A stretch of DNA of 64,000 nucleotides from contig CAYLWZ010000002.1 of NCBI GenBank assembly GCA_964387825.1, forward strand, positions 47,375 to 111,374. The letters run 5' to 3'. Of the stretch, positions 10,107 to 63,841 are shown in pieces. Below the pieces are notes generated by a model. It had not been told where the DNA came from, ran no database searches, and was given only the letters and a program-made list of their open reading frames with translations. How positions within the stretch are numbered: the first letter of the stretch is position 1; each line of letters begins with the position of its first letter. Source of the DNA: an uncultured Candidatus Saccharibacteria bacterium (lineage in GTDB: Bacteria; Patescibacteriota; Minisyncoccia; Minisyncoccales; GWA2-38-27). The translations under genes and the position numbers were made by a program.

Positions 10107-10224
10107 AAAAACAATGATTTTTCCGCATCTATTTAGAACCGTACGGGCGGGCGACCCACGGGTCTCCCCTACGATTTTTTCAAATAAATATTGCCTATTT
10201 TCAGCGCGATTCGTATTTTGAAAA

Positions 10225-10844: not shown

Positions 10845-10849
10845 ATTCC

Positions 10850-10939
10850 TATAACCTGTAACTTGTAACTTGTAACTTGTAACTTGTAACTTGAGATTTA
10901 AGTTTTGAGTTTTGAGTTATGAGTTCTAAGTTGTAAGTT
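10850..10939. repeat. rplW-rplD spacer: (acttgta)4 versus (aagtt…)n inverted arms
   Basis: read directly from the sequence. Confidence 0.65.
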
Positions 10940-11569
10940 CTAAGATTTAAATGTTTCTTTAATCACCCCTATCGCCTCTTTCGGTATGATTAAATATTTA
11001 TAAGAAAGCGCGTCTAAAACGTTTAGGTCTTTCGCCTGGATTGTGGCAATTCTCGGAATGTTTCTAAGGGCTAAAATTGCATTTTTGTCTATTTCCGGCA
11101 AAGCAATTAACCCAGAACCTTTTTCTAAAAACAATTTATTCAATATTTTTTTTGCTAATTTCGTCTTTGCCTTTTCAAAACTCAAACTATCTATGACCAA
11201 AAGCAGATTATCTTTTGCCTTGGCTGATAAAACCATAAACAAGGCCTTTCTTTTCATTTTCTTGGCAATCTTTTTTTTAAAAACTCTTTCTGCTGTCGGA
11301 CCAAAAGTTACTCCCCCTCCTCTCCAAATAGGAGAACGGTTTGAACCTACCCTCGCTCTTCCGGTGCCTTTTTGCCTCCAGGGCTTTCTTCCTCCTCCTC
11401 TAACTTCGCTTCTGTCTTTCGTTTTAGCGATATTTCTCCTCTGATTCGCCCTTTGCGCCAAAACTACCTGATGAACTAAATCAAGATTCATTTTCACTTC
11501 AAATATCTCTTTCGGCAAATCTATCTTTCCGACCTCTTCTCTATTTTGATTATAAAGTATTGTTTTCAT
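10940..11569 (-). CDS. rplD: 50S ribosomal protein L4
   Basis: uL4 pattern (…VHQVVLAQRANQRRNIAKTKDRSEVRGGGRKPWRQKGTGRAR…); likely start is MKTILYNQ (11569); upstream codons come from a catgaaa tandem repeat. Confidence 0.8.
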   Translation of the reverse strand: MKTILYNQNREEVGKIDLPKEIFEVKMNLDLVHQVVLAQRANQRRNIAKTKDRSEVRGGGRKPWRQKGTGRARVGSNRSPIWRGGGVTFGPTAERVFKKKIAKKMKRKALFMVLSAKAKDNLLLVIDSLSFEKAKTKLAKKILNKLFLEKGSGLIALPEIDKNAILALRNIPRIATIQAKDLNVLDALSYKYLIIPKEAIGVIKETFKS

Positions 11570-11640
11570 GAAACATGAAACATGAAACATGAAACATTTT
11601 TTTAATTTAGGTTTCAAGTTTTACGTTCCAAGTTTTAAAA

Positions 11641-12465: not shown

Positions 12466-12600
12466 CGAGGCAATTTAAATTATTGTATAATTTTTTAAAT
12501 TTTAATAAAATACATAGTTGATCTTATTCGTAGATCCGGATGTTATTCGTCCTAGACCCGTTCGTCCCGAACGGGACGGACTAGGGTTATTCGTCAATTT

Positions 12601-13041: not shown

Positions 13042-14232
13042 TTATATCTTGACTACTACTCCGGCGCCAACTGTTTTTCCGCCTTCCCTTATTGCAAATC
13101 TCTGTTTCTCTTCAAGAGCGACTGGAGACATTAACTTAACGTTTAAATTGACCGTATCGCCTGGCATAACCATTTCCGTCCCTTCTGGCAAAACTACATC
13201 TCCAGTTACATCAGTAGTCCTAATGTAAAATTGCGGTTTATATCCTTTAAAGAAAGGGGTATGGCGGCCGCCTTCTTCTTTGGTCAAAATATAAATCTCG
13301 CCCTCAAATTCGGTATGAGGCGTAACTGTTCCCGGTTTGGCCAAAACCTGGCCCCTTTCAACTTCTTCTTTTTTTAATCCTCTGAGAAGAATTCCAACAT
13401 TGTCTCCTGCTTTCCCTTCATCAAGTATTTTATTGAACATTTCTATACTCACTGCTACTGTTTTTTTTGTATCTTTTAAACCAATCAACTCTACCTCTTC
13501 ATTAGATTTAATTATTCCTCTTTCAATTCTTCCGGTAGCAACTGTCCCTCGTCCTTCAATAGAAAAAACATCTTCAATTGCCATTAAAAACGGCTTAGCT
13601 GTATCTCTAACAGGTTCTGGTATATACTCGTCTAACGCCTTAACCAGGTCTAAAATCGGCTTAGCTGCTTCGTCATCGCTTGATTTACATCCCAGCGCTT
13701 TTAGGGCAGAACCGCGAATTACCGGAATTTCATCCCCGGGATATTCATACTTTTTTAAAAGTTCTCGAATCTCTGATTCAACCAAATCAATAATTTCCGG
13801 GTCGTCAACCATATCGGTTTTATTAAGAAAAACAACAATTGAGGGAATACCAACCTGGCGGGCAAGCAAAACATGCTCTCTTGTCTGGGGCATAGGGCCG
13901 TCAGGAGCAGAAACCACCAAAATGGCGCCGTCCATCTGAGCGGCTCCGGTAATCATATTTTTAATATAATCGGCATGCCCGGGACAATCTATATGGGCGT
14001 AATGCTTTTTTTCCGATTCATACTCTAAATGAGAAACAGATATCGTAAGACCCCTGTCTCTTTCTTCTGGAGCAGCGTCAATCTGGTCAACGCTTTTTTC
14101 TTTACTGTTAAAACCCTTCAAACTTAAAACATGAAGGATAGCGGCTGTTAAGGTAGTTTTACCATGGTCAACATGGCCAATAGTACCAACATTTATATGA
14201 GGTTTTGTCCTTTCAAATTTTTCTTTAGCCAT
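13042..14232 (-). CDS. tuf: elongation factor Tu
   Basis: [32 protein letters not shown]…DCPGHADY… canonical EF-Tu. Confidence 0.95.
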
Positions 14233-14375
14233 AATTATTAAAAGAATTACGAATAATGAATTACGAATTAAGAATATTATATAATTCCTAATTCTTAATT
14301 CTAAATTCTAAATTCTAATTTATTTATTATTATCTTATTACTTTTTAAAAAAATGTCAATGTTTAGAGCGCGAAA

Positions 14376-16722: not shown

Positions 16723-17193
16723 TCACCAGGCGAAATGGGCAAAAGCGCGATTTGCTTCGGCCATTCGGTGGGTATCGCTTTTCTTTTTAATCGCCCAACC
16801 TGTATTATTAACGGCGTTCATCAATTCTTCCGCTAATTTTTCTTTCATCGGTTTTCCTTTTTTTTGTTTGGCTCCTTGAATTATCCAGCGCATAGCTAAA
16901 GTTAATTTCCTGCTTCCTTTTACTTCTACCGGAACCTGATAAGTCGCTCCGCCGATTCTTTTTGATTTTACTTCAAGCAAAGGTGAAGTGTTTCTTAAAG
17001 CCGTTTCAAAAACCTCTAACGGCTCTTTCTTCGTCTTTTCTTTAATAATATCAAAAGCGCCATAAACAATCTTTCTGGCTATTGTTTTCTTGCCCCGTCT
17101 CATAATTTGGTTAATAAATTTAGCGACAGTAATGTCGTTATAGACAGAATCGGGGTTAACGGGATATTTTTTTATTTTTTTTCTCCGAGCCAT
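16723..17193 (-). CDS. rpsG: 30S ribosomal protein S7
   Basis: [20 protein letters not shown]…KRAFAHFAW uS7 signature. Confidence 0.9.
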
Positions 17194-17255
17194 TTTTTCT
17201 TGAAACTTAAAACTTGGAACTTAAAACATAATCATTTAAAAAGTTTCAGGTTTTA

Positions 17256-19223: not shown

Positions 19224-20306
19224 TTAAAGCCCTAAGGCCGTTACTATTTGCTTAATCAAAGAAACCACTACCGGAGGAGGCATTAAACTGTAAGAAGAAA
19301 CTCCTTCGTCGTCTAAAACCTGCCAGGGTTTTTTGATAATCTTTACTTTATTGGTTTCTTTATCTAATTGATAATTATACTCCGGGGTAATTTCATAATC
19401 CTCAACAAATTCTTTTGCTTTTTCTATTGGCACAGAGTTCCTTAAAAGAACTTTTGGAATACCATAAAGAGAAAAAGCCTGCTCTATCAATTCTTCGTCT
19501 GTTTTTAATCTGTTTTTTATCGGCTCTATCCCAAACTCATCTCCTTCTTTTTGGACCATCCTCGCTCCTCGGCCTGTCTGCGCAGACGGGCAATCAGGGT
19601 TGTCGCATAATAAATAAAATTTATCTTCTTTTTTATCATATCCGGTTTTTTTTGTCGGAAAAAGCTTCAAACTCCTTGATGTCTGACAAAGAGGGCAAAC
19701 CACTCTGTATTTTATCCTCTCGTCAATAACTGACTCAGGGACGTCAATTAAAACAAAAATATCAGGATCGTTCCGATAATTAATCAAATCCCGAAAGAAA
19801 AGGGAATAAGAAATTTGGTCTAAATCCCGAGGGAAACCATCAATAAAAAGGGCTTTTCTGCCCTTTTTCGCTATCTCTCTTTTCGCCAAAACCAAAATTA
19901 ATTCAGAAGGCAAAAGAATTTTTGTGCTTCTTTTTTCCAAAAAGCTGATTATTTTATCCAGGGATAAAAATCCCCGATAATTTTTCCTTAAAAAGTCAAT
20001 CAGCTCTTTTCTCTTATTCTTATCTACTATTGTCTTGTCAAATTCGCGAACCATATCCCCTATTGAAAAATGTTCTATCCTGTCCTTATCAACCACTTCT
20101 TTAAATATTTTAGCGTAAGTTCCTTTGCCAGAATTTTTTTTGCCTAAAAAATAAGCGATAAAAGTATTTTTCTGCAAATACTCTCTTAATTTTTTTATCT
20201 CTTTTCCCGTTTTTAACTCAAAATATGCCTGTCTGTCTTTAGGGTCTGTTAAATCAAAATCCCTTGAGCTACCATCTAATTTTGTTTTAAAAAGAGGAAA
20301 AGCCAT
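19224..20306 (-). CDS. adenylate kinase-like nucleoside-monophosphate kinase with N- and C-terminal extensions
   Basis: P-loop FLGKKNSGKGTYAKIF (cf. GxPGxGKGT), NMP-binding HFSIGDMVRE (cf. ISTGDMLRA), LID IDGFPRD…CPLC…CDNPDC zinc motif; 360 aa versus ~215 for canonical Adk. Confidence 0.6.
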   Translation of the reverse strand: MAFPLFKTKLDGSSRDFDLTDPKDRQAYFELKTGKEIKKLREYLQKNTFIAYFLGKKNSGKGTYAKIFKEVVDKDRIEHFSIGDMVREFDKTIVDKNKRKELIDFLRKNYRGFLSLDKIISFLEKRSTKILLPSELILVLAKREIAKKGRKALFIDGFPRDLDQISYSLFFRDLINYRNDPDIFVLIDVPESVIDERIKYRVVCPLCQTSRSLKLFPTKKTGYDKKEDKFYLLCDNPDCPSAQTGRGARMVQKEGDEFGIEPIKNRLKTDEELIEQAFSLYGIPKVLLRNSVPIEKAKEFVEDYEITPEYNYQLDKETNKVKIIKKPWQVLDDEGVSSYSLMPPPVVVSLIKQIVTALGL

Positions 20307-20336: not shown

Positions 20337-21209
20337 TTACCTTTTTGACAAAATATCAAGATTTTCTCCATCGGAGAAAATCTTGATATTTCCATTTTCG
20401 TCTGTTCTTAAAACCTGTATAGCAAATTTTTCAAGATTTGCCAAGGTTGTATCGTGGGGATGGCCGTAATTATTGTCTTTGCCGGCTGAAATAACGGCGA
20501 CTTTTGGCAAAACTTTCTCTAAAAACCTTAAAGAACTGGATGTCTTGCTGCCGTGATGGCAAACCTTTAAAACGTCTGACTCTAAGTTAACATTTTTCTC
20601 GATTAATTCCCTTTCTACCTTTTTCCCAATATCGCCGGTAAACAAGAAAGAAACGTCCTTAAAGAATAAATGAGCCACGATAGAAGTATTGTTAGTATTC
20701 TTAGTTTGCTGACCCTCTAAATTTTCAGATGGATGCAAAATCTCCATGAAAATCAAAGGGTCTTTCTGAAGTACTACCTTTTGTCCAGACTGGGCTATTT
20801 TTATCACTGCTTCTTCTTCCTTAATCAATTTATCCCATTCTTTCCATTCAGAATTTTGCCTGACAATTCCTGTCCACAAAATGTTTTTAACTTCGTATCT
20901 TTTTAAAACTTCAAATAATCCGAAATAATGGTCGTGCTCCGGGTGGGTGAGGATTATCAAATCAATAGTTCTGTCATAAAAGGGCATCTCTGCCGCCAAT
21001 TTTTCCAAGATTGCGGAGGATGGACCTCCATCAATCAAAATTTGCTGTTTTTGAGGCGTTTCAATAAAAATACTGTCTCCCTGCCCTATGTCAAAAAAAA
21101 CCACCTCAAGCGGTTGAGAATTATTTATGTCATAAATAACAAACCAAGCAAGAATATTCGCGGAAACAAGTCCGAATAATATAAAAAAAACTAATTTCTT
21201 GTTTCTCAT
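20337..21209 (-). CDS. ComEC/Rec2-related metallo-beta-lactamase-fold protein (MBL domain only)
   Basis: N-terminal TM segment, HPEHDHYFG (HxHxDH) and …VCHHGSK… motifs typical of the ComEC C-terminal domain. Confidence 0.65.
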   Translation of the reverse strand: MRNKKLVFFILFGLVSANILAWFVIYDINNSQPLEVVFFDIGQGDSIFIETPQKQQILIDGGPSSAILEKLAAEMPFYDRTIDLIILTHPEHDHYFGLFEVLKRYEVKNILWTGIVRQNSEWKEWDKLIKEEEAVIKIAQSGQKVVLQKDPLIFMEILHPSENLEGQQTKNTNNTSIVAHLFFKDVSFLFTGDIGKKVERELIEKNVNLESDVLKVCHHGSKTSSSLRFLEKVLPKVAVISAGKDNNYGHPHDTTLANLEKFAIQVLRTDENGNIKIFSDGENLDILSKR

Positions 21210-21257
21210 TTTCTATTTTTCATACAAGCATTATGATAAAAATATTGCTATCCAAAA

Positions 21258-21361
21258 ATGAACTACCTCGCCCCAAAAGGGCGAGGTGTCCCTCCGGGCG
21301 AGTTCTTTCGGTAGATGTATCCTCGCCGCGGAGCGGCGAGGTATTTATGTTCCGAAATAAA
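21258..21361. repeat. 104-bp double-hairpin 'CCTCGCC' repeat element, copy 1 (intergenic)
   Basis: ~90% identical to 63210-63314; hairpins cctcgcccc-aaaa-gggcgagg and cctcgccgc-gga-gcggcgagg. Confidence 0.8.
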
Positions 21362-21450: not shown

Positions 21451-21636
21451 TTATTTTAATTGTTCTGCCTGGTCTTTTGAAAGCACTCTCCAGCATTCAT
21501 GCTCGCCAACCTGCGATTTGGCAACCGCAAAATACCTATCTCTTCCTTTTGCTTGTTTTTTAACAACTCTGTAATCGTCTGTAATAAATTTCTTCTTTGA
21601 TTTTACATCATAAAAGCTTAATTTTTCTTTTGTCAT
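21451..21636 (-). CDS. hypothetical small protein (61 aa)
   Basis: ORF bracketed by the CCTCGCC element and terminator (3') and a MITE (5'); no family recognised. Confidence 0.4.
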   Translation of the reverse strand: MTKEKLSFYDVKSKKKFITDDYRVVKKQAKGRDRYFAVAKSQVGEHECWRVLSKDQAEQLK

Positions 21637-21667: not shown

Positions 21668-21875
21668 AGAGCGCGGGATTCAAACCAGAATCAATTTAGC
21701 TCCGTCCGTAGGGAAACGAAATAATGGGTCAATTTCTTCGTCACTCCTCCTCAAGGTATTAATTCTTAATACCTCTTCGTCGTTCTATACCCGTCCGGGA
21801 CGGACTAGGATCGTTCCTCGAACTTAACCCATTCTTTCGTTTCTAAACTTGGTTCTGGTTTGAATCCCACGCTCT
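21668..21875. mobile_element. MITE-like element copy 1 (208 bp) with terminal inverted repeats agagcgcgggattcaaaccagaa … ttctggtttgaatcccacgctct
   Basis: terminal inverted repeats plus internal nested inverted repeats; internal 100 bp is the exact reverse complement of part of 27983-28283. Confidence 0.8.
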
Positions 21876-21994
21876 TTACCGACCTTTTAAAGAATCTAAA
21901 AAGTTTTCCACACCCTGATTATATTATTTATACCTTAATTCAAATGAAAATGGTAGTCAAGGGATAAAAAGCCGCCTATTTGTTTAAGACTTAG

Positions 21995-22993
21995 CTATTT
22001 GATTTGAATCTTGAAATTCACGTCCTTTTTATGGCGGGCTTTCGCAGAGTAATATTTCGTTAGAGATTTTGCTTTTTCTAAAACTTTTTTTGGAATTCTT
22101 GCCTTTCCGCAACTGCGAACCAAAACAATAGGTCCGGGATAATTTTCCATCTCTATTAAAATATCGCCTTTCTTGGCTAACTTTTCAATTTCTATATCTT
22201 CTTTCTCGTTTCTCCCTGCAATAATCTTTACCCTGATCTTGTCGAAGGGCCAAAAATGCCGACCGAGTTTTAAAAGCGTAATATCGTTTTCGCCGCACCG
22301 GGGATGTTTTTCAAACAACTCTTTTAGTTTCTTCCCAAATTCCAAGTCCGTGAGCAAACAGCCGCCGGCAGGGGCAGGATACCAATTAATGCGCCATTTT
22401 TTTGCCAGCTCTATCTGCTTTTTCCTTGAACGGCCAGACATGCTTAAAAGTTTCTTTCTGTCTATTAGTCCTTCTTTCTCTGGAATAGTCAAAGGCAACA
22501 ATCTTGCCGAAAGAGGCCTTAAAAGATAGCCGGAAAGCAGAGACTCTCTTTCTGTTATTTCTAAAGATTTTTTGTTTTGAGTCATCGGCCTTTCTCCTAA
22601 TACTTCCCCTGTCGCCACAAAATCAAAATGGCGATTTATAAAATATTGTCTGGCTTTTTTAAGCATCAAAATGCGGCAATCAAGGCAGGGGTTCATCGCC
22701 GAGCCATATCCGTATTTTGGGGATTTCACTATTTTCAGATGCTCCCTTGAAATATCAACAACCTTTAAGTTTATCCCTAGGCCGTCTGCTGTCGCAGACA
22801 GCGGGTTAGGCCTCAAACTTTTAGCAGAAGATTCGGCTTGTCTTGCGTCAAAAAAATAACTAAAAAAAGCAATGCCGAAAACATTGATTTCCTGCTCCAT
22901 TAAAATCTTAGCCGCTAAAATTGAATCTAATCCTCCAGAGAATAATACCAATGCTTTCGGTTTCTTTGTTATTTTCTCTGATGTCAAAGCCAT
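21995..22993 (-). CDS. PP-loop ATPase, divergent MnmA/TrmU-like tRNA thiolase paralog
   Basis: SGGLDS PP-loop, NPCLDC and DFVATGEV motifs paralleling the NPCVVCN / DFVATGHYAR of the adjacent mnmA. Confidence 0.6.
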   Translation of the reverse strand: MALTSEKITKKPKALVLFSGGLDSILAAKILMEQEINVFGIAFFSYFFDARQAESSAKSLRPNPLSATADGLGINLKVVDISREHLKIVKSPKYGYGSAMNPCLDCRILMLKKARQYFINRHFDFVATGEVLGERPMTQNKKSLEITERESLLSGYLLRPLSARLLPLTIPEKEGLIDRKKLLSMSGRSRKKQIELAKKWRINWYPAPAGGCLLTDLEFGKKLKELFEKHPRCGENDITLLKLGRHFWPFDKIRVKIIAGRNEKEDIEIEKLAKKGDILIEMENYPGPIVLVRSCGKARIPKKVLEKAKSLTKYYSAKARHKKDVNFKIQIK

Positions 22994-24228: not shown

Positions 24229-24852
24229 TCATTTTGGAAGATATTTTCTGTACTCCTTAATGATAAACCGCCATTTACGGCGAGACCAATAAGGGCCGGC
24301 GTAATCAATGCCAATTCTTCCGGTTGTTAAAACTTGAGAATCTTTTGTCTCTTCGCCCCGATTCTCCAACCAAATTTTCTTACTTTTAGTCAAATCTTCC
24401 CCGTAAAAAGATTTATCTAATTTTAAATAACGGCAGACCTTTCCCGGTCCGTTGGCAAGGGACAGTCCCTTGACTGTCCCTTGACTGTCCCTCAACTCCG
24501 GCTTGATTGCGCGGATAAGGACGCACTCCGGCTCTCCGGCGCCGGCAGTGGTAATATTCAATTGCCAGTACATTCCGTAAACCAAATAAATATAAATATG
24601 GCCGCCAATTAAATATTCAACCTTGTTCCGAGGAGTTATCCTTCCTTTGTAAGAATGAGCTGCCTTGTCTTGAGGCCCGACGTATGCCTCGGTCTCTATG
24701 ATTTTGCCTGCTATTTTCTCGGTAACAATTTTTTTTACCCCGTTAGAAATCAAAGATTTTCTAACGGGGCGAACAATATATTTTCCTAAAAGTTCTTTGG
24801 CTATTTTTAAAGTCGGCTGAGTATAAAAATTTCTAGATAATTTTTTTCTCAT
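24229..24852 (-). CDS. mpg: DNA-3-methyladenine glycosylase (Mpg/AAG family)
   Basis: …IIETEAYVGPQDKAAHSYKGRITPRN…YIYLVYGMYWQLNIT… Mpg family pattern. Confidence 0.75.
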   Translation of the reverse strand: MRKKLSRNFYTQPTLKIAKELLGKYIVRPVRKSLISNGVKKIVTEKIAGKIIETEAYVGPQDKAAHSYKGRITPRNKVEYLIGGHIYIYLVYGMYWQLNITTAGAGEPECVLIRAIKPELRDSQGTVKGLSLANGPGKVCRYLKLDKSFYGEDLTKSKKIWLENRGEETKDSQVLTTGRIGIDYAGPYWSRRKWRFIIKEYRKYLPK

Positions 24853-27181: not shown

Positions 27182-27658
27182 TCATTTCTTTCTTCTTTTT
27201 TTTAATTGGTGGATACAAACACCGCCTTGTATCCTTTTGCTCATATTACAGTTAAAACACATAACTTGCAATCTTAAATTTTTTGGATAATTATTAACCT
27301 TTAGCCATTTTAAAAATGAAGTTCCGATTCCATGTTTCTTCCGCTGTTTATTTCCATTGTTATCGATATGGTCTAAACATAAAAAATCTATTTCTGTTTC
27401 CCCGCAACAAACACATTTTGGTTTCTTGCTCCCATATGATTGCAATGCTTTAATTTTTAGTCCTTTCCTATACCTTTTACTCTCTTCAATTACCTTTTCT
27501 TTATTCTTTTTCTTCCATAATCTACTTCTTTCTTTAAATTTCTCTGAACTCTCTAAATAATATTGGTGAGCTTTTTTATTAGCACATTCTTTACATATAC
27601 GGAACTTAACAAGAGTACCATCTCTATTTTTAGTTGTTCCGCATAAATAACATTTCAT
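27182..27658 (-). CDS. HNH endonuclease with N-terminal zinc ribbon
   Basis: CYLCG…CKEC ribbon; CVCCGE…LCLDHIDNNGNK…N…CFNCN HNH motif. Confidence 0.7.
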   Translation of the reverse strand: MKCYLCGTTKNRDGTLVKFRICKECANKKAHQYYLESSEKFKERSRLWKKKNKEKVIEESKRYRKGLKIKALQSYGSKKPKCVCCGETEIDFLCLDHIDNNGNKQRKKHGIGTSFLKWLKVNNYPKNLRLQVMCFNCNMSKRIQGGVCIHQLKKRRKK

Positions 27659-27982
27659 ACATGTTTCAATTTTGCTTTTTTATAAACATTAGAAAAAAAT
27701 TAAAATAAAAAACCGATTATTTAACCGGTTTTAGTATATCATGGAACAAAACGGCTTGTCAATGTATTACTTATTTAAAGCACAACAGCAAAAACAACAA
27801 GATAAAAAAAGCGAGACCCATCCTCGTTGCGAGGCTAGGTCTCGCAGAAACCTCCTTACCACCATCTACTATTTCTTTATACTGCAAGCTTCGTTTAAAT
27901 CTTTAAGAATATTTGCAATATCGATGCCGTAGAGTTTGCAAATATCTCCGATTTTTAAGCTCTCCATTTCCATTTTGGCTAA

Positions 27983-28283
27983 AGAGCGTGGGATTCGAAC
28001 CAGAACCAAATTTAGAAACGAAAGAATGGGTTAAGTTCGAGGAACGACCCTAGTCCGTCCCGGACGGGTATAGGACGACGAAGAGGTATTAAGAATTAAT
28101 ACCTTGAGGAGGAGTGACGAAGAAATTAGCCCATTCTTTCGCTTCCCTTTAGGCGGGTGAATTTTATCCACCTTCTTCGTTGCTCGTCGCTAATGTATCC
28201 TGCGGATACATTACGCTCCTCGCGCCTTGAATCTGAATAAAATTCGCTCCGCTAAATTGATTCTGGTTCGAATCCCACGCTCT
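27983..28283. mobile_element. MITE-like element copy 2 (301 bp), inverted relative to copy 1, with extra 115-bp internal segment
   Basis: terminal inverted repeats agagcgtgggattcgaaccagaa … ttctggttcgaatcccacgctct; internal gtattaagaattaatacc and cctagtccgtcccggacggg hairpins shared with copy 1. Confidence 0.85.
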
Positions 28284-29214: not shown

Positions 29215-29350
29215 TTCATATCTCAAAGCATCAACCGGATTCATCTTAGCGGCGCCTCTGGCAGGCAGACCCGCCTGTATCGTTATGCGAAGCATTGCGG
29301 GCAGGTATCCGGAAATACAGCCTATCAAGAACGAGAAAACCAGACCAAAT
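29215..29350 (-). pseudogene. degenerate duplicate of the 3' end of the MacB-type permease gene (cf. 30406-30470), interrupted by one GC-rich 36-bp element
   Basis: translation …CISGYLPA[MLRITIQAGLPA]RGAAKMNPVDALRYE* versus permease C-terminus …VGCVSGYLPARSAAKFNPAEALRYE*. Confidence 0.75.
29271..29305. repeat. GC-rich 36-bp 'PARNA' element, single copy
   Basis: ccgcctgtatcgttatgcgaagcattgcgggcagg; same family as 36187-36258, 36517-36588 and 47586-47624. Confidence 0.8.
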
Positions 29351-35592: not shown

Positions 35593-36147
35593 TTATAATC
35601 CTAATCCATCAGAAATTTTTTGCATCGCACTTAAAGTAATCTCAATAAATTTTTCTAAAGACAGACCTAATAAATTTTCAGATTTTTTTATTATTTCCCT
35701 ATTAGCCCCTCTGGCAAACGCTTTTTCCTTAAAACGCCTTAAAACATTTTCCGTTTTTAAATCGTTTATTTTTTTAGAAGGCAGAACAAGAGTAGCGGCT
35801 ACTATTAAACCGGTTAAAGGGTCAACGCAATATAGCGCCTTTGCCATTTTTGTTTCCGGTTCAATGTTATGAATTTCATTATGAGACAAAACCGCATTAC
35901 ATATCTCTTCGTCAAATCCTAATTTTTTCAACATTTCGGCCCCTACCCTAGAATGCAGTTTGGGATCGCCTTCTACTTTTTCATAATCAATATCGTGCAA
36001 TAAACCGGCAATCCCCCATTTATTTTTGTCTTCATCAAAATATTCGGCAAAATCCCTCATTGCTGCTTCTACGGCTAAACAATGTTTAATGAGATTTTTA
36101 TTTTTAATATTTTCTTTTAATAAATTTAATGCTTCTTCTCTTTTCAT
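35593..36147 (-). CDS. HD-domain phosphohydrolase
   Basis: HCLAVEAAMRDFA … LLHDIDY HD motif. Confidence 0.65.
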   Translation of the reverse strand: MKREEALNLLKENIKNKNLIKHCLAVEAAMRDFAEYFDEDKNKWGIAGLLHDIDYEKVEGDPKLHSRVGAEMLKKLGFDEEICNAVLSHNEIHNIEPETKMAKALYCVDPLTGLIVAATLVLPSKKINDLKTENVLRRFKEKAFARGANREIIKKSENLLGLSLEKFIEITLSAMQKISDGLGL

Positions 36148-36737
36148 TTTATTTTAAATAAAAGCCATTGTTTTCCCCGGCCTTTCCCGCCTGCAACGCT
36201 TTGCGTAGCATTGCGGGCAGGCCCGCCTGCAACGCTTTGCGTAGCATTGCGGGCAGGCATTTTAACTAAGCAATAATTTCCTTTTAATTTTTTACCTTTT
36301 AATCCAAAAATAATCTTATCCTTTGTTTTCTCAACTAATTCGTATTTTCCTTTGTCATAAATCTTGACAATGCCTGCTCCATAATTTCCTTTGGGTATTT
36401 TTCCTTCAAAATTAATATAGCCGATTGGGTGGTCTTCAGTTTGAATCGCCAGATGTTTCACTCCCTTCTTTCCCGGCACTCCTTTCGGCACCGCCCAAGA
36501 TTTTAAAACTCCATCCCCGCCTGCATCGCTATGCGAAGCATTGCGGGCAGGCCCGCCTGCATCGCTATGCGAAGCATTGCGGGCAGGCATTTCTAACCTG
36601 AAATCAAAATGATGCCCCGCTTTCTCAGCAAAATGTTCTTGAACCACAAACCTATTTTCTGAAGTTCTCAAAACCTTACCTTTTGGCTCGGGAGTTTTAT
36701 CAAACTTTCTTTTCTCCCAATATTTTTTTAAGCTCAT
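36144..36737 (-). CDS. LigD-type 3'-phosphoesterase (PE) domain protein carrying two in-frame 2x12-aa repeat insertions
   Basis: KRKFDKTPEP…FVVQEHFAEKAGHHFDFRLE…DGVLKSWAVPKGVP…EDHP…FEG…G matches the LigD PE domain; inserts PARNASHSDAGG x2 and PARNATQSVAGG x2. Confidence 0.65.
   Translation of the reverse strand: MSLKKYWEKRKFDKTPEPKGKVLRTSENRFVVQEHFAEKAGHHFDFRLEMPARNASHSDAGGPARNASHSDAGGDGVLKSWAVPKGVPGKKGVKHLAIQTEDHPIGYINFEGKIPKGNYGAGIVKIYDKGKYELVEKTKDKIIFGLKGKKLKGNYCLVKMPARNATQSVAGGPARNATQSVAGGKGRGKQWLLFKIK
36187..36258. repeat. 2x tandem GC-rich 36-bp element (ccgcctgcaacgctttgcgtagcattgcgggcaggc), in-frame in LigD-PE gene
   Basis: perfect tandem; ~60% GC in a ~33% GC genome; encodes PARNATQSVAGG x2. 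Confidence 0.9.
36517..36588. repeat. 2x tandem GC-rich 36-bp element variant (ccgcctgcatcgctatgcgaagcattgcgggcaggc), in-frame in LigD-PE gene
   Basis: perfect tandem; encodes PARNASHSDAGG x2. Confidence 0.9.
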
Positions 36738-40101: not shown

Positions 40102-40326
40102 TTATTTTTCTCTTATCATCTGACTACCGCATTTCGGGCATTTTTCTTCATAACAAGGAACTCCTGTTTTATGGGGAGTTGTTGTTCCGCATTTAGGGCA
40201 AACACATTCGCCTCCTCCTCCCAAACCAAAACCGCCGGGTTGGCGACTTCGGCCGATTCCTCTGCCTAATCCTCGACCCGCGTCCCTGCCTCCGCCGACA
40301 GGTCCTGTTCCGTTTCCAAATGGCAT
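40102..40326 (-). CDS. DUF5320-family protein with C-terminal Cys4 ribbon
   Basis: [13 protein letters not shown]… (cf. DUF5320 MPRGDGTGPMG) plus CPKCG…CPKCG. Confidence 0.55.
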
Positions 40327-40364
40327 AATTTTATTGTTTTATGATTTTCTTTACAACGACCTTT

Positions 40365-40706
40365 TTACTTTTTCTTTTTTGTTTCCAATTCCTGAATTCT
40401 TTTCTCAATGGTTTTCATGCTGTCCTTTAAGTAATTTAATTCCTCATTTAGTATCTCTTTCTCCTCTTTTTCTGTCATCTGCGGCTCTGTTTGAGGATAA
40501 TACCCATAACCGGCGCGTCCCCAATCATACCGACCCATTCCTCTGCCATAACCTCTGTCATATCCAAAACCTCTCCCCCAGCCAAAATTTCTTCTGCCAA
40601 AACCTTGTTTTACGTAACCGGGAGAAGAATAACCGGCGCAACGGCCCAATCCTCTTCCGGTCATCGGGCCTGTTCCCATAGGCCCTGTTCCGTTTCCAAA
40701 TGGCAT
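40365..40706 (-). CDS. DUF5320-family protein with Gly/Arg/Tyr-rich middle and coiled-coil C-terminus
   Basis: [23 protein letters not shown]…; paralog of 40102-40326. Confidence 0.55.
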   Translation of the reverse strand: MPFGNGTGPMGTGPMTGRGLGRCAGYSSPGYVKQGFGRRNFGWGRGFGYDRGYGRGMGRYDWGRAGYGYYPQTEPQMTEKEEKEILNEELNYLKDSMKTIEKRIQELETKKKK

Positions 40707-40959
40707 GATAATTTGTTTATTAATTATTACTTTATTAATTTTAACATTAAATCGACCTTTAGAATAGCTTTAGAGCACAGGATTCGAATCCCGCAGTCTT
40801 TAACCTTGATTGCAAACACTAACTGTTATGAGTATATACCCATAACCATCGCTTGTCAACTCTCGTTTTCAATAAGGGAAGGGGCGGGAATTATAATCAA
40901 AAAAACCGAGGAATAAATCCCAGCTTTAATTTTTTTTAATCAATTGTTTTAGTTTTCGC

Positions 40960-44631: not shown

Positions 44632-45858
44632 TTAGATCATAAGCGCGGAAAGATAATAAAAACCAAGGAGGAAAAGAATAATTGATTCGCTTAAAGCAAT
44701 CCAAATCATTGCTTTATTTGAAGCCAACCAAAGTTTCATTGTAAAAAGGGCTATCAAAAAAACAATAATTTCGTCTAACATATAAAAGGCAAGGTAAACA
44801 GAAATATACAATAAATAATAAAATGTTGGCATCTGGGACTGAGCCAAAAGGCCGGCAAATATTACTGGTACGGCAGCCGAGCAGGGAAATTCTACAATAG
44901 TGATTATGCCGGCAAATAAAATAATGCCTCCAATTAATAAAAAAATACTGCCTGACTCTTTAAAAATTTTTTGAAATTTTAAGGAAAATCTTGAAAATAA
45001 TTTCTCCCCTGCTCCTGATTCGCAAACAAGGCCTCTCCTCTTGAATTTAATAAATTCTTTTAGAAAATAAATTCCCCCTCCAAGCCCCAAAAGACCTATC
45101 AAAAGATTCATTATCTTCAGATAAGGGACAAAGAAAGAGAAAATTTGGTACCAGAGGATTATTAAAAATCCGTAAATAAGAGAGACAATCAAGATATACA
45201 CTCCGCCGAAAATCAGAATTCTCTTTTTGGAACGCAAAGCCAAAACTAATCCTAAAATTAAAACCAAAGCTCCTAAAGAACAGACATTAAAGCCATCCAG
45301 AATTCCTAAAATAACAGTTAAAAAAGGCAGAGAATATCTGCTGGTGTCTATCTTGCCAATAAAAGGGATATTAATTTTTCCTTCCAGATTTACCGCTGTA
45401 ACACCTCCTTTTTGAGATTCTTGTTCTGACACGCAGGGCTTATTCAAAACGTTCCCTCTGATTTCTTTAACACATTCCTCAATATTCTTGCCAATTTTCT
45501 CGTTAAAACCAATAAAGTACCTATCTTTAATAAAAGTAGCCGGAACCAAACCATAAAACTTTGAAGGCACCTTATAATCCTCGTAAAGGCTTTTTAATAA
45601 ATCAATATTTTTTCTCTCAGAAATTTCAAATTTATTAATTTTAATTCCTGGATACTCTTTTTCCAATCCTCTCAGAAAATTTTCCTCTCTGGAGCAGTGA
45701 GGACAAGTGTTGCCATATAAAAAATTAATTTCCCCTTTTCCTTCCTGAGCAAAAACAAAACTAAAATTAATAAAAATTGGAAATAAAATAAAAATGGCAA
45801 AAATCCATTTCTTCATACACCTAAAGAAGGCTGTTCTGTTGATTCCTACTTGCCTCAA
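44632..45858 (-). CDS. thioredoxin-fold (CPHC) domain fused to CcdA/DsbD-like transmembrane disulfide-transfer domain
   Basis: signal/TM, YGNTCPHCSRE thioredoxin-like motif, then multi-TM region with paired Cys (…FNVCSLG…EFPCSAAVP…); start probably MKKWIF (45816). Confidence 0.6.
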   Translation of the reverse strand: MRQVGINRTAFFRCMKKWIFAIFILFPIFINFSFVFAQEGKGEINFLYGNTCPHCSREENFLRGLEKEYPGIKINKFEISERKNIDLLKSLYEDYKVPSKFYGLVPATFIKDRYFIGFNEKIGKNIEECVKEIRGNVLNKPCVSEQESQKGGVTAVNLEGKINIPFIGKIDTSRYSLPFLTVILGILDGFNVCSLGALVLILGLVLALRSKKRILIFGGVYILIVSLIYGFLIILWYQIFSFFVPYLKIMNLLIGLLGLGGGIYFLKEFIKFKRRGLVCESGAGEKLFSRFSLKFQKIFKESGSIFLLIGGIILFAGIITIVEFPCSAAVPVIFAGLLAQSQMPTFYYLLYISVYLAFYMLDEIIVFLIALFTMKLWLASNKAMIWIALSESIILFLLGFYYLSALMI

Positions 45859-58895: not shown

Positions 58896-58961
58896 TAAAT
58901 TTATTTCGGAATATAAATTATCTTACCCCCGCACATAAATTATGTACGGGAACAGGATAGT

Positions 58962-59681
58962 TTATTTTGCGAAAAGTCCGCAATAACAACGGCCGTCTTT
59001 TTGAATTTCCTGCTTATGCCAAACGCAGGGACAAATCTTCGGCCTATCATCCTCTATATCTCCGGTTACTCTTCTGCAGGGACAATATCGAGCCCCATAT
59101 TTTTTCTCGTTTGCCAAAAGTCCTTTTATTAATCCTTCAACCGCCGCTTTATCGGGATTTAATCTAAATCCGTTCTTTTTAGCGTAAACCTCATACTGTT
59201 TAATTATCTCTTCAATTTCTCCTCTTTTTTCTTTTTCCTCACTTTCTCCTTCTCTTTTATTTCCTTCTTCTTCCTTACTCCCTTCTTCTCTACCTCCTTC
59301 TTCCTTATTTCCTTCTTCCGTTCCATCGCTTTCTTTTCTTACCCCCTTAAGACCTTCCTTCTCTAACACTCCGTCCAACCACTCTTTTACAATTGGTTCT
59401 GGTCTCGCTCCGATAAATCCGCTAACCGGCTTTCCGTCTTTAAACAAAACTACCGTAGGAATCTGATTAATCCCAAATTTTTGAGCAGTCTGGGGAGTCT
59501 CGTCTACGTTAACTTTAGCCAAACTAATTTTATCTTCATAATCTTGGGCTAATTTTTCCAAAATCGGCGACAATACAAGACAGGGACTGCACCATGTAGC
59601 CCAAAAATCAACTAAAATCAGCTTATTGGCTTTTTTAATTTCTTCCTCAAAATTTTCATCGGTTAAAATTATTTCTGACAT
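58962..59681 (-). CDS. thioredoxin fused via acidic low-complexity linker to ferredoxin:thioredoxin reductase catalytic-subunit-like domain
   Basis: FWATWCSPC thioredoxin active site; linker EGNKEEGGREEGSKEEEGNKREGESEEKEKRGE; C-terminal YCPCRRV…ICPCVWH…GRCYCGLF FTR-catalytic-domain Cys pattern. Confidence 0.65.
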   Translation of the reverse strand: MSEIILTDENFEEEIKKANKLILVDFWATWCSPCLVLSPILEKLAQDYEDKISLAKVNVDETPQTAQKFGINQIPTVVLFKDGKPVSGFIGARPEPIVKEWLDGVLEKEGLKGVRKESDGTEEGNKEEGGREEGSKEEEGNKREGESEEKEKRGEIEEIIKQYEVYAKKNGFRLNPDKAAVEGLIKGLLANEKKYGARYCPCRRVTGDIEDDRPKICPCVWHKQEIQKDGRCYCGLFAK

Positions 59682-61846: not shown

Positions 61847-62683
61847 TTACTTATTAAATAAAATTTCTGCTTCTCTTTTTAAAACTTGGAATTTGTTTTT
61901 TGATATTTTTGTTCTTTTACTAAATTTTTCAACATCAATTGTCAGTAGGTCCTTGGCCAGCATTATTTTTCTTGAAGCAAAAATTTCAGCTAAATACCTA
62001 TTTAAAGACGGAAGAATAGTAATCGGGTATAACTTTTGGCTTTCAATCAAATATTCTAATCCTTTTCCTTTGGGACAATTCCAACCTAAAAGTTTAACGC
62101 CAGAACAATTAGAATATTTAGTTGCCTTACTCGTAAATTTTCTGTTAGTAATAAGCAAGCTTCTAAGTTTAAACTTTTTTCCGGACAAGCTTCCTTTTTT
62201 AATGTCTAAAAAACGGGCGTAATTTGCCAAGGCAACATCTGAATGAACTTTTCCTTTAAACAGGTTTCGGTATTTGCATTCCCCGATATATAAAACATCG
62301 TTTCTTTTTGCTAAAAAATCTATTTCATAGTCACGGGAACAATAGCCGGGAACATGTTGATTTAATTTTACCTCAAAATTGTTTCTTGAAAAAATTTCTC
62401 CAATATATTTTTCAAAGTGAAAACCGGTAGGTCCTAATTTTTTAATTCCTTGCTTAAGGTTAAATTTTAAAGCAACTGTCGGCGTTTCTTGATTAAGCAA
62501 GTCCTTTACCTCTTTAAAAATCTCCGATGTCTTAATGCCGGGATAAGCTTTTCTTTCAATTTTTCGGCTGATTTTTTCAGCAAGTTGCTTAGAGGCCTTA
62601 ACCTTTCTGGCCGATTGATATACTTTTTTTGCCGAAAAGGGCTCTTTTTCTCCGTTAAATTTTACGACAAATAAAGAAGACAT
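61847..62683 (-). CDS. ATP-cone domain fused to Mrr-like restriction-endonuclease (PD-D/ExK) domain
   Basis: N-terminal VVKFNGEKEPFSAKKVYQSARKV (ATP-cone-like); central …GFHFEKYIGEIF…DYEIDFLAKRNDVLYIGECKYR Mrr catalytic-core pattern. Confidence 0.55.
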   Translation of the reverse strand: MSSLFVVKFNGEKEPFSAKKVYQSARKVKASKQLAEKISRKIERKAYPGIKTSEIFKEVKDLLNQETPTVALKFNLKQGIKKLGPTGFHFEKYIGEIFSRNNFEVKLNQHVPGYCSRDYEIDFLAKRNDVLYIGECKYRNLFKGKVHSDVALANYARFLDIKKGSLSGKKFKLRSLLITNRKFTSKATKYSNCSGVKLLGWNCPKGKGLEYLIESQKLYPITILPSLNRYLAEIFASRKIMLAKDLLTIDVEKFSKRTKISKNKFQVLKREAEILFNK

Positions 62684-62749
62684 ATAACTTACAACTTATA
62701 ACTTACAACTTATAAATAGATGTTTACCGTCCGATGTTAAACAAGATTT

Positions 62750-63022: not shown

Positions 63023-63841
63023 TTATCTCTGGCCAATAATCGCTATCATCGTCTGAAGCTCCTTATCTCTCCTAAAAGAAAAATATTTATTGGAAAGACA
63101 AAAAGTGCATTCCGGGCTAACTTCAATATTTTTTTCTTTTATTCCCAAATTAATTAACTGAATTTTAGCAATTTTCTTCAAATCCAAGAAATTCTTTCCT
63201 TTTTTCCTTAATGAACTACCTCGCCCCAAAGGGGCGAGGTATTCCTGCGGGCGAGTTCTTTCGGCAGATGTATCCTCTCCGCAGAGCGGCGAGGTATTTA
63301 TATTCCGAAATAAAACATCCGGTAAATAATCTTTAAATATCTTTAATAGGCCATCTTTGACTTCAAAATGGCATTGAGAGATTCCCGGCCCGACTCCGAC
63401 TAAAATATCTTCAGGCAAACTTCTAAAATTCTCGGTTATTTTTTTAATAACCGCCAGGAGGATATTTTTAGACAAGCCGCGCCAACCGGCATGGATTAAG
63501 CCGACAATTTCTTTTTCCGGGTCATAAATAAAAATCGGCAGGCAGTCGGCAACAGTGATAGTTAAAAACAAACTTTTGTGAGCGGTTATCAGCCCATCGG
63601 TCTTTTTCATTACGCTTCCTGCGTCACTTTTAGAAACTATTCTTACGTTATTGCCGTGAATTAATTCCGCGCTTAACGCCAAACTACCCTTAATGCCAAA
63701 TTTCTCTAAAAACCTGTTTCTATTTTCTTTTATCTTTTTATCACGCAATAAATTCCCGGTTAATTTCATTGTCCCGTCATTTTTCGTTGAAACGGCGGCG
63801 ACTATCTTCGGATATTTTTTGAAAAGGGCAAACATATTCAA
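63023..63841 (-). CDS. pgeF: PgeF/YfiH (DUF152) family protein carrying an in-frame 35-codon repeat-element insertion
   Basis: …HAGWRG…GPGISQCHFEV… and C-terminal …CTFCLSNKYFSFRRD… PgeF signatures flank the insert …NINTSPLCGEDTSAERTRPQEYLAPLGRGSSL…. Confidence 0.7.
   Translation of the reverse strand: MNMFALFKKYPKIVAAVSTKNDGTMKLTGNLLRDKKIKENRNRFLEKFGIKGSLALSAELIHGNNVRIVSKSDAGSVMKKTDGLITAHKSLFLTITVADCLPIFIYDPEKEIVGLIHAGWRGLSKNILLAVIKKITENFRSLPEDILVGVGPGISQCHFEVKDGLLKIFKDYLPDVLFRNINTSPLCGEDTSAERTRPQEYLAPLGRGSSLRKKGKNFLDLKKIAKIQLINLGIKEKNIEVSPECTFCLSNKYFSFRRDKELQTMIAIIGQR
63210..63314. repeat. 104/105-bp 'CCTCGCC' double-hairpin element, copy 2 (inside pgeF, in frame)
   Basis: ~90% identity to 21258-21361, same orientation on the plus strand. 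Confidence 0.85.

Follow-up and report, generated by a model that had tools for sequence, protein, structure and literature searches.

A double-hairpin repeat inserted in frame in pgeF is probably a small non-autonomous mobile element of Patescibacteria

Two copies of a strongly structured repeat lie within the 64,000-nucleotide stretch of DNA analysed here (the window), one of them between genes and the other inside pgeF, and this arrangement raises the question of whether the repeat is a functional RNA, a genuine addition to the PgeF protein or a piece of mobile DNA that happens to be tolerated within a gene. The evidence set out below leads us to regard it, with considerable confidence, as a small non-autonomous mobile palindromic repeat of Patescibacteria (CPR), which would be moved in trans and whose in-frame insertions are tolerated.

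A repeat search of the window returned copies A and B (Table 1) as 105-nt sequences in the same orientation with 92% identity (97 of 105 positions in the pairwise comparison), each containing two CCTCGCC...GGCGAGG hairpins; the pattern CCTCGCC-N7-GGCGAGG occurs four times in the window, always within these two copies, against an expectation of 0.02. The original prediction of two similar repeats with double hairpins in the same orientation is thereby borne out, except that the length of 104 bp given there becomes 105 nt and that the two hairpin sequences quoted for each copy, while right in number, mix copies A and B. The element is built from two tandem stem-loop domains, in each of which an AT-rich outer stem encloses a near-identical GC-rich palindrome, TA(C/T)CCTCGCC..GGCGAGGTA. 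The palindromes agree at 22 of 27 positions and are repeated directly, not inverted, at a distance of 55 nt; within a 99-nt unit the left one lies 6 nt from the left end and the right one 17 nt from the right end. This unit is what is inserted, and the copies have about 105 nt in common once the preferred A-rich target is included. Both strands fold more strongly than shuffled sequences (z from -4.3 to -6.3), and the two window copies, with a GC content of 0.54 and 0.51, stand out from the 0.358 of the window. A possible diverged half-copy contains a 19-nt exact match to the right end of the element (TTTATTTCGGAATATAAAT on the plus strand), which is followed by a different hairpin and then by a GGATAGTTTATT tail.

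Table 1. Coordinates of the repeat and its host gene in the window, and placement of the copies at all sites.
Feature	Position	Strand	Remarks
Copy A, double-hairpin repeat (site winA)	21257..21361	+	intergenic; surroundings: terminator-like hairpin (intrinsic type) of ORF 21451..21636(-) and start of metallo-beta-lactamase-fold ORF 20337..21209(-)
Copy A, core behaving as inserted unit	21260-21358		GAAC...CCGAAAT, 99 nt
Copy A, hairpin 1	21266..21286	+	CCTCGCCCCAAAAGGGCGAGG; nested in outer stem GAACT/AGTTC (domain 1)
Copy A, hairpin 2	21321..21341	+	CCTCGCCGCGGAGCGGCGAGG; nested in outer stem TTTCGG/CCGAAA (domain 2)
Copy B, double-hairpin repeat (site winB)	63210..63314	+	within pgeF, antisense to gene
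Copy B, hairpin 1	63219..63239	+	CCTCGCCCCAAAGGGGCGAGG
Copy B, hairpin 2	63274..63294	+	CCTCTCCGCAGAGCGGCGAGG; single T-C stem mismatch
pgeF host gene (YfiH/PgeF family, Cu-oxidase_4 fold)	63023..63841	-	272 aa, intact apart from insert
Possible diverged half-copy, domain 2-like	58900..58974	-	between Trx-FTR ORF and mnhE; weak, nhmmer E = 5
Sequences that would bound a longer element			left GAACTACCTCGCC..., right ...GGCGAGGTATTTAT-TTCCGAAAT
Site L124			ThiI-like gene, in frame
Site L130			about 135 nt downstream of 23S rRNA 3' end; 135-nt variant with extra CUCGC-GAAA-GCGAG hairpin
Site L150			intergenic, adjoining rpmF
Site L146			41 nt downstream of murI
Peptides expected if insert-carrying proteins are translated			DYLPDVLFR, NINTSPLCGEDTSAER, GSSLR

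The ORF that houses copy B matches PF02578 (Cu-oxidase_4/DUF152) with E = 7.5e-54, and C100 and H117 never vary among 78 sequences and H62 hardly does, so that the catalytic-type residues are kept and the claim that pgeF is intact holds; the same is true of the claims that the ORF reads through the element in an unbroken frame and that conserved PgeF segments (GPGISQCHFEV and CTFCLSNKYFSFRRD) flank the insert. The insert-carrying copy is identical in three independent JGI metagenome assemblies and is therefore not an assembly artefact. The additional segment, residues 178-210 of the ORF (FRNINTSPLCGEDTSAERTRPQEYLAPLGRGSS), is missing from 77 of 77 aligned PgeF orthologues (15 in the first set; 230-260 aa; syntenic ones included; the nearest 57-60% identical by BLASTP) and hence is not ancestral. 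One of the syntenic orthologues, P0002, has YchF upstream and DUF5652, AF1548-like, HD and YbaB downstream. In the syntenic orthologues the site is GTT TTA TTA, whereas in the window 99 nt separate GTT TTA from the second TTA, which leaves identical TTA codons on both sides. The net insertion (63213-63311, GAAC...CCGAAAT, or 63212-63310 when aligned to codons) amounts to 99 nt or 33 aa; the 35-codon insertion originally proposed corresponds to the span of the shared DNA, but not to the net gain over the orthologues.

In the AlphaFold2 model of PgeF (mean pLDDT 89.4) the insert is modelled as coil linking strand 176-178 to strand 216-218, and the block means along it are 57, 41 and 39, while outside the insert the model resembles YfiH/YlmD/PgeF crystal structures with TM values of 0.76-0.78. 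PDB sequence matches include 6dzd, 6t0y and 7fbg, and in the sequence alignment 39 PgeF residues lie between aligned positions 174 and 214, versus 11 in YlmD. The surface loop that had been anticipated is thus seen as a low-pLDDT coil between strands, its exposure at the surface being our reading of the model, and we infer that translation of the insert yields a disordered loop on the surface, which is neutral or slightly harmful.

The same DNA recurs as an in-frame 33-aa insertion (MNYLAPKGRGIPSGKFFRQMYPRRRAARYLCSE) in the ThiI/MnmA-like gene of another Patescibacterium (P0121), where it lies in the opposite orientation to the pgeF copy; translation uses the minus-strand frame of the element in pgeF and its plus-strand frame in the ThiI-like gene. 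This second insertion is present on seven contigs from JGI, ENA and Logan samples and is missing from all 62 other aligned sequences (61 database homologues, up to 83% identical, and the ThiI-like ORF of the window itself), the closest homologues having an empty site that reads CAG AAA ATT AAG or CAA GAA ATT AAA. In the AlphaFold2 model, residues 32-59, which follow helix 15-30 and precede strand 62-70, have pLDDT values below 50, the remainder of the protein being modelled confidently. When the two loci are compared, the element is 93-94% identical whereas the ThiI-like host genes are only 65% identical in DNA, and gene order differs; this disparity points to the horizontal movement of tiny elements among uncultured episymbionts, and the element would appear to cross between lineages or to have invaded them recently. 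Part of the similarity between genomes could nonetheless reflect constraint on the hairpins, given that variable columns avoid paired positions.

These two coding cases bear directly on the idea that selection favoured the 33 residues as a true addition to PgeF, perhaps a new functional loop or an interaction peptide, with the intergenic copies as fragments or by-products. An intact ORF with conserved catalytic-type residues is what this idea would lead one to expect, and the pgeF frame of the element is open in intergenic copy A as well; yet the segment is absent from every aligned orthologue and lacks a confident structure, the same DNA encodes an unrelated peptide in another gene through the opposite orientation and frame, and four further sites are non-coding. 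A profile of the minus-frame peptide, run against 1.84 billion representative proteins, found only a spurious ORF (P0122) over the L130 copy together with unrelated repetitive proteins. As an account of where the 33 residues came from, selected addition is effectively refuted.

Nor does it seem that the insert escapes translation, whether through excision from the mRNA or because the ribosome skips it, a thought that is raised by the identical TTA codons flanking the pgeF insert and by the presence of strong GC hairpins within an AT-rich mRNA, and for which T4 gene 60 hopping and the mitochondrial 'byp' GC-hairpin elements are precedents. In both coding cases the insert is exactly 33 codons long and stop-free, so bypass is not needed; moreover, no stop follows the putative take-off codon, the geometry of the ThiI-like junction differs, and neither a known intron or bypass signature nor an Rfam hit is found. 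We judge ribosomal bypass or RNA excision to be unnecessary and unsupported, and extremely improbable.

Altogether six distinct sites were located in public data, occupied by copies of 105-135 nt that are 90-99% identical. A pattern scan of metagenome contigs yielded 19 loci, of which seven were true copies representing four sites, two of them new, and the remaining 12 were chance matches in GC-rich coding DNA. The nearest relatives of the host proteins are labelled Patescibacteria, Parcubacteria, Nealsonbacteria or Minisyncoccales. A loose two-hairpin pattern matched at least 120 loci in genome contigs, which belong to GC-rich genomes, and none among the matches listed was element-like by blastn or nhmmer; viral contigs, a phage collection and a plasmid collection contained no match to the element, and a six-frame peptide search of 5.8 billion protein clusters recovered only the PgeF of the window (P0001), P0121 and the spurious ORF P0122. 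Within the data searched the copy number of the element is low, and the peptide and profile searches over billions of proteins recovered no further in-frame copies.

Since both strands fold so strongly, one may ask whether the element is primarily a functional structured RNA (for example a pair of cis-regulatory hairpins, a small RNA, or a terminator or stabiliser working in both directions) whose copy in pgeF is incidental. Several observations are in keeping with such a role: variable columns fall at paired positions in only 5 of 15 cases versus 70% expected (approximate P 0.003); one compensatory C:G to G:C change is seen, and two other changes yield G-U wobbles when the plus strand is read; in copy A, a simple terminator consensus is matched by plus-strand hairpin 2 and by minus-strand hairpin 1; the L130 variant has gained a GNRA-capped hairpin; and the murI copy lies at a distance past the gene at which a terminator is expected. 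Against this, orientation relative to transcription is evenly divided, the transcript carrying the plus version at three sites and the minus version at three, with the two coding copies opposite to each other. In the pgeF mRNA both apparent wobbles become A-C mismatches and hairpin 2 has a real mismatch. The compensatory pair, the only one among six copies too similar to give a covariation test any power, makes hairpin 1 identical to hairpin 2 and can for this reason be explained by conversion between the hairpins, and conservation of the hairpins would be equally expected if a transposase recognised them in DNA. At the Rfam gathering threshold nothing but tRNA and LSU rRNA was detected in the window and four loci, and a permissive scan of copy A gave sub-threshold matches at chance level. 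We consider an RNA function to be a very improbable explanation of the element.

A mobile repeat remains by far the more satisfactory interpretation, and the junctions suggest how its copies may move. The left flank is (A/T)AAT in six of six copies, the element lying immediately 3' of it in A-rich sequence, and AAAT is found at both junctions in five of six; in pgeF the junctions are TAAT on the left and AAAT on the right, and the orthologous empty site holds a single TAAT. The element is thus inserted 3' of (A/T)AAT in A-rich sequence at many unrelated sites, and insertions in genes can survive when it falls in an open frame within a tolerant loop, as it has done at least twice, in pgeF and in the ThiI/MnmA-like gene, with 33 aa gained in each. 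Such survival is possible because the length of the element is divisible by three and half of the six frames are stop-free. Adaptation to coding was considered and dismissed, as three open frames out of six occur in 16% of shuffles and provide no evidence for it.

The copies would be moved in trans by an enzyme encoded elsewhere, one that most likely recognises the two subterminal hairpins on single-stranded DNA, in the manner of IS200/IS605-PATE or REP/RAYT systems, and that would place the element 3' of the tetranucleotide without target duplication. The insertion mode is read from six sites and two empty-site comparisons, the case against duplication from the one pgeF junction. In the 64-kb window, 78 of the 80 ORFs, as assigned with NCBIfam or Pfam, include no transposase or recombinase family, Y1 transposases among them. 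No family was assigned in these scans to a few short ORFs or to ORFs 44635-45858 (408 aa) and 27185-27658 (158 aa). An ISNCY transposase beside the L130 copy was considered as a parent and rejected: the element is located outside the ISNCY, at a distance of about 100 nt, and the terminal repeats of the latter (GGGAAATAGAAATGTCATA) are unrelated.

With regard to mechanism alone, a rival is a classical MITE mobilised by a DDE transposase through terminal inverted repeats with a 3-4 bp duplication of (A)AAT. The left end, GAAC..TACCTCGCC, can indeed be matched with GGAAC-ATAAA-TACCTCGCC, the reverse complement of the right end, but the inverted match is subterminal, its tips are offset by 2-3 nt and it requires a 5-nt indel, so that what it amounts to is simply the two palindromes, and the hairpins are direct and not inverted copies of each other. 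A duplication would accommodate the AAAT found on both sides in five copies, as well as a net gain of 99 nt composed of a 95-96 nt core plus 3-4 nt; at pgeF, however, the unlike TAAT and AAAT junctions and the single TAAT of the empty site are better explained if the 3' AAAT belongs to the element itself. It is well established that bacterial MITEs of 100-200 bp can contain in-frame ORFs (PMC2229807, PMC10969869), yet no IS with matching ends was seen, those of the ISNCY being different. We regard the DDE mechanism as unlikely, though well worth keeping in mind, and favour hairpin-guided insertion of the mobile repeat.

The repeat has company among other structured sequences that have entered genes. 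A LigD phosphoesterase ORF contains 36-nt palindromes termed 'PARNA' in frame at two positions, the ThiI-like protein P0142 contains a 99-nt element with perfect inverted ends of 15 nt, and P0131 and the window's own ThiI-like gene have other palindromic or hairpin inserts in frame. The suggestion that this genome tolerates or exploits repeats in coding sequence can accordingly be retained for tolerance, as illustrated by the two genes with in-frame copies, PARNA and the ThiI-like inserts, whereas nothing shows exploitation. A more tentative generalisation, somewhat against the odds as matters stand, is that in-frame palindromic repeats are a recurrent source of lineage-specific insertions across Patescibacteria at large, belonging to several unrelated families of which some spread horizontally; if this were true, unexplained insertions in CPR proteins and rRNA loci would largely be scars of such elements.

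Protein-coding palindromic repeats have reportedly been described as a peculiarity of Rickettsia. To encounter the same behaviour in a second, unrelated group with small genomes, where two enzymes are affected, one per orientation, and close relatives have the empty sites, suggests that it is a general consequence of small AT-rich genomes under relaxed selection. It also accounts for insertions rich in R, P, G and A in Patescibacteria proteins, which affect annotation, alignment and structure prediction, and the element family can be used to search for the mobilising enzyme.

Among known small repeats, Caulobacter CIR (PMC2229807) resembles the element in that its two halves, 5' and 3', each form a stem-loop independently, and pneumococcal SPRITE (PMC10969869) in being a mobile repeat similar to a rho-independent terminator, a likeness shared by the hairpins of copy A on both strands; unlike our element, both are intergenic, with no report of in-frame copies within genes, and they bear no sequence relationship to it. 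The 107-bp Correia/NEMIS, ERIC/IRU and RU-3 elements (PMC2229807) are likewise small, non-autonomous and structured, with stop-free frames fused to host ORFs. They differ in having clear terminal inverted repeats, usually with TA termini and TA duplications, and in being AT-rich, whereas the present element forms an island of high GC content, has (A/T)AAT as its target and gives no demonstrable duplication.

IS200/IS605 PATEs and REP/BIME elements are mobilised by the Y1 HUH transposases TnpA or RAYT. Like them, the element has a pair of similar imperfect palindromes that are subterminal and point the same way, apparently lacks true terminal inverted repeats, and, as far as six sites show, seems to insert 3' of a fixed tetranucleotide, with pgeF junctions that are consistent with no duplication. 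It departs from them in that no Y1 transposase is found within the 64-kb window, from REPs in particular in that these are extragenic and very numerous, and from IS608 in that the guide and cleavage-site logic is not recognisable in it.

The closest parallel in behaviour is with the Rickettsia palindromic elements (RPE; Ogata et al. 2000/2002), summarised in PMC2229807 and PMC10969869. In both cases a repeated palindromic element of about 100-150 bp with long stem-loops, for which no transposase is known, occupies small, AT-rich, reduced genomes, where it is found both between genes and in frame within conserved housekeeping genes that stay unbroken, the insert being compatible with the protein fold (here a low-pLDDT coil in both AlphaFold2 models); one copy even lies near a structural RNA locus, in the 23S rRNA trailer here and at tmRNA and RNase P RNA for RPEs. 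For a guanylate kinase that contains an RPE, activity has reportedly been compared between the protein with the insert and the protein lacking it. The differences are that our element consists of two tandem domains with a duplicated GC-rich palindrome instead of one long stem of terminal inverted repeats, that a handful of copies were found rather than tens to hundreds, that it uses both orientations in genes, and that its hosts are Patescibacteria and not Rickettsia, the likeness being one of behaviour, with no relationship in sequence to be expected. Because the nearest relatives of the host proteins are of Patescibacteria type, the element resembles RPEs in how it works without belonging to them: it forms a new family, in a phylum new to such repeats, and behaves as RPEs and other in-frame bacterial MITEs do.

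The two stretches singled out by the original prediction are a genuine repeat of 105 nt, recovered by a repeat search of the window as a two-copy family with 92% identity (97 of 105 positions in a pairwise count) and the same orientation. The window contains its signature, CCTCGCC-N7-GGCGAGG, four times, two per copy and none outside the copies, against 0.02 occurrences expected from shuffles; the copies are GC islands (0.54 and 0.51, versus 0.358 for the window) whose folding z-scores relative to dinucleotide shuffles are -6.3 and -4.3 on the plus strand and -5.8 and -4.5 on the minus strand. The consensus fold consists of two tandem domains, hairpin 1 being enclosed by an outer stem GAACT/AGTTC and hairpin 2 by TTTCGG/CCGAAA, and the two GC-rich palindromes are direct copies that share 22 of 27 positions and lie 55 nt apart. 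Between mnhE and a Trx-FTR fusion gene, 19 nt match the right end of the element exactly; beyond them come another, different hairpin, CCCCGCACAT..ATGTACGGG, and a tail resembling the element's other end. This stretch may be a diverged single-domain relative.

Coordinates of the element, its host genes and other repeats (window positions unless a contig, L, is named)
Feature	Position	Strand	Context
Element, copy A	21257-21361		intergenic
Element, copy B	63210-63314		within pgeF
Element, L124	8050-8154		within ThiI-like gene
Element, L130	1925-2059		~135 nt downstream of 23S rRNA 3' end; 135-nt variant
Element, L150	2136-2240		between rpmF and beta-solenoid protein gene
Element, L146	1071-1175		41 nt after murI
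Possible single-domain relative	58900-58974		intergenic
pgeF	63023..63841	minus	272-aa ORF enclosing copy B
PARNA repeats	36181-36262, 36511-36592		within LigD ORF
PARNA, partial	29229-29310		intergenic
LigD ORF	36144-36737	minus	PARNA host
ThiI/MnmA-like ORF	21995-22993	minus	13-aa insert at 22775-22805
P0142 gene	L159 572-1636
P0131 gene	L160 2848-3900
Third repeat family	21776-21876	plus	~105 nt, 89-91% identical
Third repeat family	27979-28082	minus
Third repeat family, partial	12557-12586
Third repeat family	L150 196-298
GC-rich (>=70%) hairpin islands	19553-19599, 24509-24555, 10133-10176		coding; first in ORF 19224-20306 (minus)
GC-rich direct repeat	40226-40329, 40644-40709		66 nt, 74% identical
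Small ORF	40102-40326	minus	bears direct repeat
Small ORF	40491-40916	plus	bears direct repeat
Heptamer-array spacers	87-176, 1440-1653, 2597-2677, 3780-3891, 4305-4745, 6114-6228, 8031-8156, 10836-10957, 11555-11639, 14232-14324, 17187-17227, 62679-62715		intergenic
Mobile DNA	L130 421-1817, 2207-3080		3' flank of 23S rRNA gene

The ORF that encloses copy B matches Pfam PF02578 (E = 7.5e-54) and, by sequence, the YfiH/YlmD/PgeF crystal structures. Its nearest database relatives, an identical sequence aside, share 57-60% identity with it and are shorter, at 230-258 aa, and the segment FRNINTSPLCGEDTSAERTRPQEYLAPLGRGSS is missing from every PgeF orthologue in an alignment of 16 sequences and in a later one of 78, which speaks against its being ancestral; the same alignments show the family residues retained (C100 and H117 invariant, H62 nearly so). 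A true positional orthologue, P0002, has YchF upstream and DUF5652, AF1548-like, HD and YbaB genes downstream, as in the window. At the DNA level the window reads GAT GTT TTA (99 nt) TTA AGG versus GTT TTA TTA in orthologues, so that the net insertion is 99 nt, or 33 codons (residues 178-210); the in-frame insertion claimed originally therefore stands, the gene reading through the element, except for its size, since 35 codons is the span of DNA common to the copies and not the net gain over orthologues. In the AlphaFold2 model (78 sequences, mean pLDDT 89.4) the insert is predicted as a low-confidence coil between strands 176-178 and 216-218 (block means 57, 41 and 39), in keeping with the loop position anticipated for it, while the remainder superposes on the YfiH, YlmD and PgeF structures at TM 0.76-0.78. 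The gene with its insert recurs at 99.9-100% identity across three independent JGI assemblies, which rules out an assembly artefact, and we infer that the insert is translated. Among PgeF homologues, P0008 carries an insert of 19 aa that lies upstream of this site by a few residues, and P0120 is extended at its C terminus by sequence in which the motif RNRT(F/Y)ISSS is repeated; the same loop of the protein seems to take up insertions again and again.

A search of the element's six-frame translation against 5.8 billion protein clusters returned P0121, which is a ThiI/MnmA-like PP-loop protein of 353 aa belonging to another organism, and a spurious 128-aa ORF (P0122). In the P0121 gene, carried by contig L124 of another Patescibacterium, the element faces the other way with respect to the gene, and a different reading frame runs through it, which yields MNYLAPKGRGIPSGKFFRQMYPRRRAARYLCSE, likewise 33 aa; this segment is present in none of 62 other aligned sequences, namely the ThiI-like ORF of the window and 61 homologues from databases whose aligned identity reaches 83%. 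The closest homologues have CAG AAA ATT AAG or CAA GAA ATT AAA at the site. AlphaFold2 predicts a low-confidence loop here as well (residues 32-59, pLDDT < 50), between helix 15-30 and strand 62-70, and seven contigs, drawn from JGI, ENA and Logan samples, encode P0121. Scanning JGI metagenomes for a pattern with exact ends yielded four sites, two of them new, for a total of six distinct sites whose copies are 90-99% identical pairwise; in the L130 variant, hairpin 2 contains an additional hairpin, CUCGC-GAAA-GCGAG.

Between the window and L124, the ThiI-like genes share 65% DNA and 62% protein identity and lie in different neighbourhoods, whereas the element is 93-94% identical between the two genomes. 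Because this identity exceeds that of the host genes, the six sites are unrelated to each other and the orthologous positions are empty in close relatives, the sequence comparisons point to a mobile element, by recent invasion or crossing between lineages, and not to inherited sequence. Each of the six copies has (A/T)AAT at the end of its left flank, and the element itself ends in AAAT followed by A-rich sequence; the gain is exactly 99 nt in both coding cases and can be written as GAAC...CCGAAAT placed 3' of (A/T)AAT. Elements of the IS200/IS605 type and their derivatives, the PATEs, insert without target duplication. The pgeF junction, a single one, has TAAT on the left and AAAT on the right and fits an element that carries its own 3' AAAT and inserts in this manner; a 4-bp target duplication fits less well, since the two flanks differ and TAAT stands only once at this place in orthologues, though a 3-bp duplication of AAT is possible.

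As to the mobilizing enzyme, no transposase or recombinase came up when 78 of the window's 80 ORFs were scanned against NCBIfam or Pfam; the families found were ribosomal protein operons, EF-Tu, EF-G, Suf proteins, an ABC exporter, NrdD, a 2-oxoacid oxidoreductase and an Mbh/Mrp-type complex. An ISNCY transposase (NF033594, E = 6.6e-118) adjoins the L130 copy and was rejected as a parent, having its own, unrelated inverted repeats, outside whose bounds the element lies. Since the pgeF junctions fit insertion without duplication, and the apparent terminal inverted repeat is only the two palindromes, subterminal and offset, we lean tentatively toward a hairpin-recognizing single-strand transposition that would move the element in trans; a DDE-type MITE mechanism is only somewhat less likely, with a share left for other mechanisms. 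The 3' flank of the Patescibacteria 23S rRNA gene on L130 gathers mobile DNA: the ISNCY-family IS, whose transposase has 420 aa and whose inverted repeats are 19 nt long, the element's 135-nt variant, and a further perfect hairpin of 15 bp with TAGTTCC after it. A LAGLIDADG endonuclease gene lies inside the rRNA region.

The hairpins might alternatively be kept as RNA instead of DNA. Substitutions do avoid pairing positions (5 of 15 variable columns are paired, although 70% of columns are), the paired changes being one compensatory change that gives hairpin 1 the sequence of hairpin 2, two wobbles on the plus strand and one real mismatch, in the pgeF copy. Against the RNA reading, three copies lie in the plus and three in the minus orientation relative to the local transcript, with the two coding copies opposite. 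No Rfam family matches the element, and the covariation test proposed at the outset has no power with six near-identical copies. The hairpins are conserved, and their sequences are compatible with either a DNA or an RNA basis. On either strand the copy A hairpins fit a simple terminator consensus, and copies between genes might incidentally affect transcription.

The further suggestion that the genome tolerates or exploits structured repeats in coding sequence is upheld in its first half by other in-frame palindromes, and nothing shows exploitation. The PARNA repeats, palindromic repeats of the window, lie in an ORF with a LigD 3'-phosphoesterase domain (PF13298, E = 5e-32). Two separate parts of this ORF, read as MPARNASHSDAGGPARNASHSDAGG and MPARNATQSVAGGPARNATQSVAGG, each consist of a tandem pair of GC-rich 36-nt palindromes that keep the frame (MFE -45 and -48 kcal/mol). 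The window's ThiI/MnmA-like gene has a 13-aa insert, SLRPNPLSATADG, missing from 14 homologues and coded by the GC-rich palindrome GCTGTCTGC-gaca-GCAGACGGC. Unrelated palindromic inserts also stand in frame in ThiI-like genes of other Patescibacteria: 33 aa (99 nt) with 15-nt perfect inverted ends GCCCCGTTAGAGGAT/ATCCTCTAACGGGGC in P0142, and ~35 aa with the hairpin CCCGTTAGAAATC-aaa-GATTTCTAACGGG in P0131; a short SPKGEGG insert is common to several homologues. A third repeat family combines a hairpin, CCCGTCCGGGACGG, with a tRNA T-arm-like GGTTCGAATCC, in which neither Rfam nor a tRNA model calls a tRNA; contig L150 carries both this family and the double-hairpin element.

Further repeats mark the window. 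GC-rich hairpin islands occur in an adenylate-kinase-like ORF, a 3-methyladenine glycosylase gene and the gene for ribosomal protein L2, and a GC-rich direct repeat is borne by two small ORFs on opposite strands, neither with a family match. Tandem heptamer arrays (CTTATAA, CTTACAA, CTTGAAA, AATTCTT and similar) make up many intergenic spacers, especially in ribosomal-protein operons, and are often followed by their inverted counterpart, giving a long AT-rich palindrome per spacer. Gene-strand bias is extreme: across the 64 kb, the minus strand carries 78 of the 80 ORFs that reach 70 aa.

Our literature search found no description of such elements in Patescibacteria. The stop-free frames of Rickettsia palindromic elements (RPEs) and other bacterial MITEs become fused to host ORFs (PMC2229807, PMC10969869), and the present element behaves in the same way. 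Since its host is a Patescibacterium and not Rickettsia, and since its architecture differs, with two tandem stem-loops and palindromes in direct repeat, the element works like an RPE but is not one.
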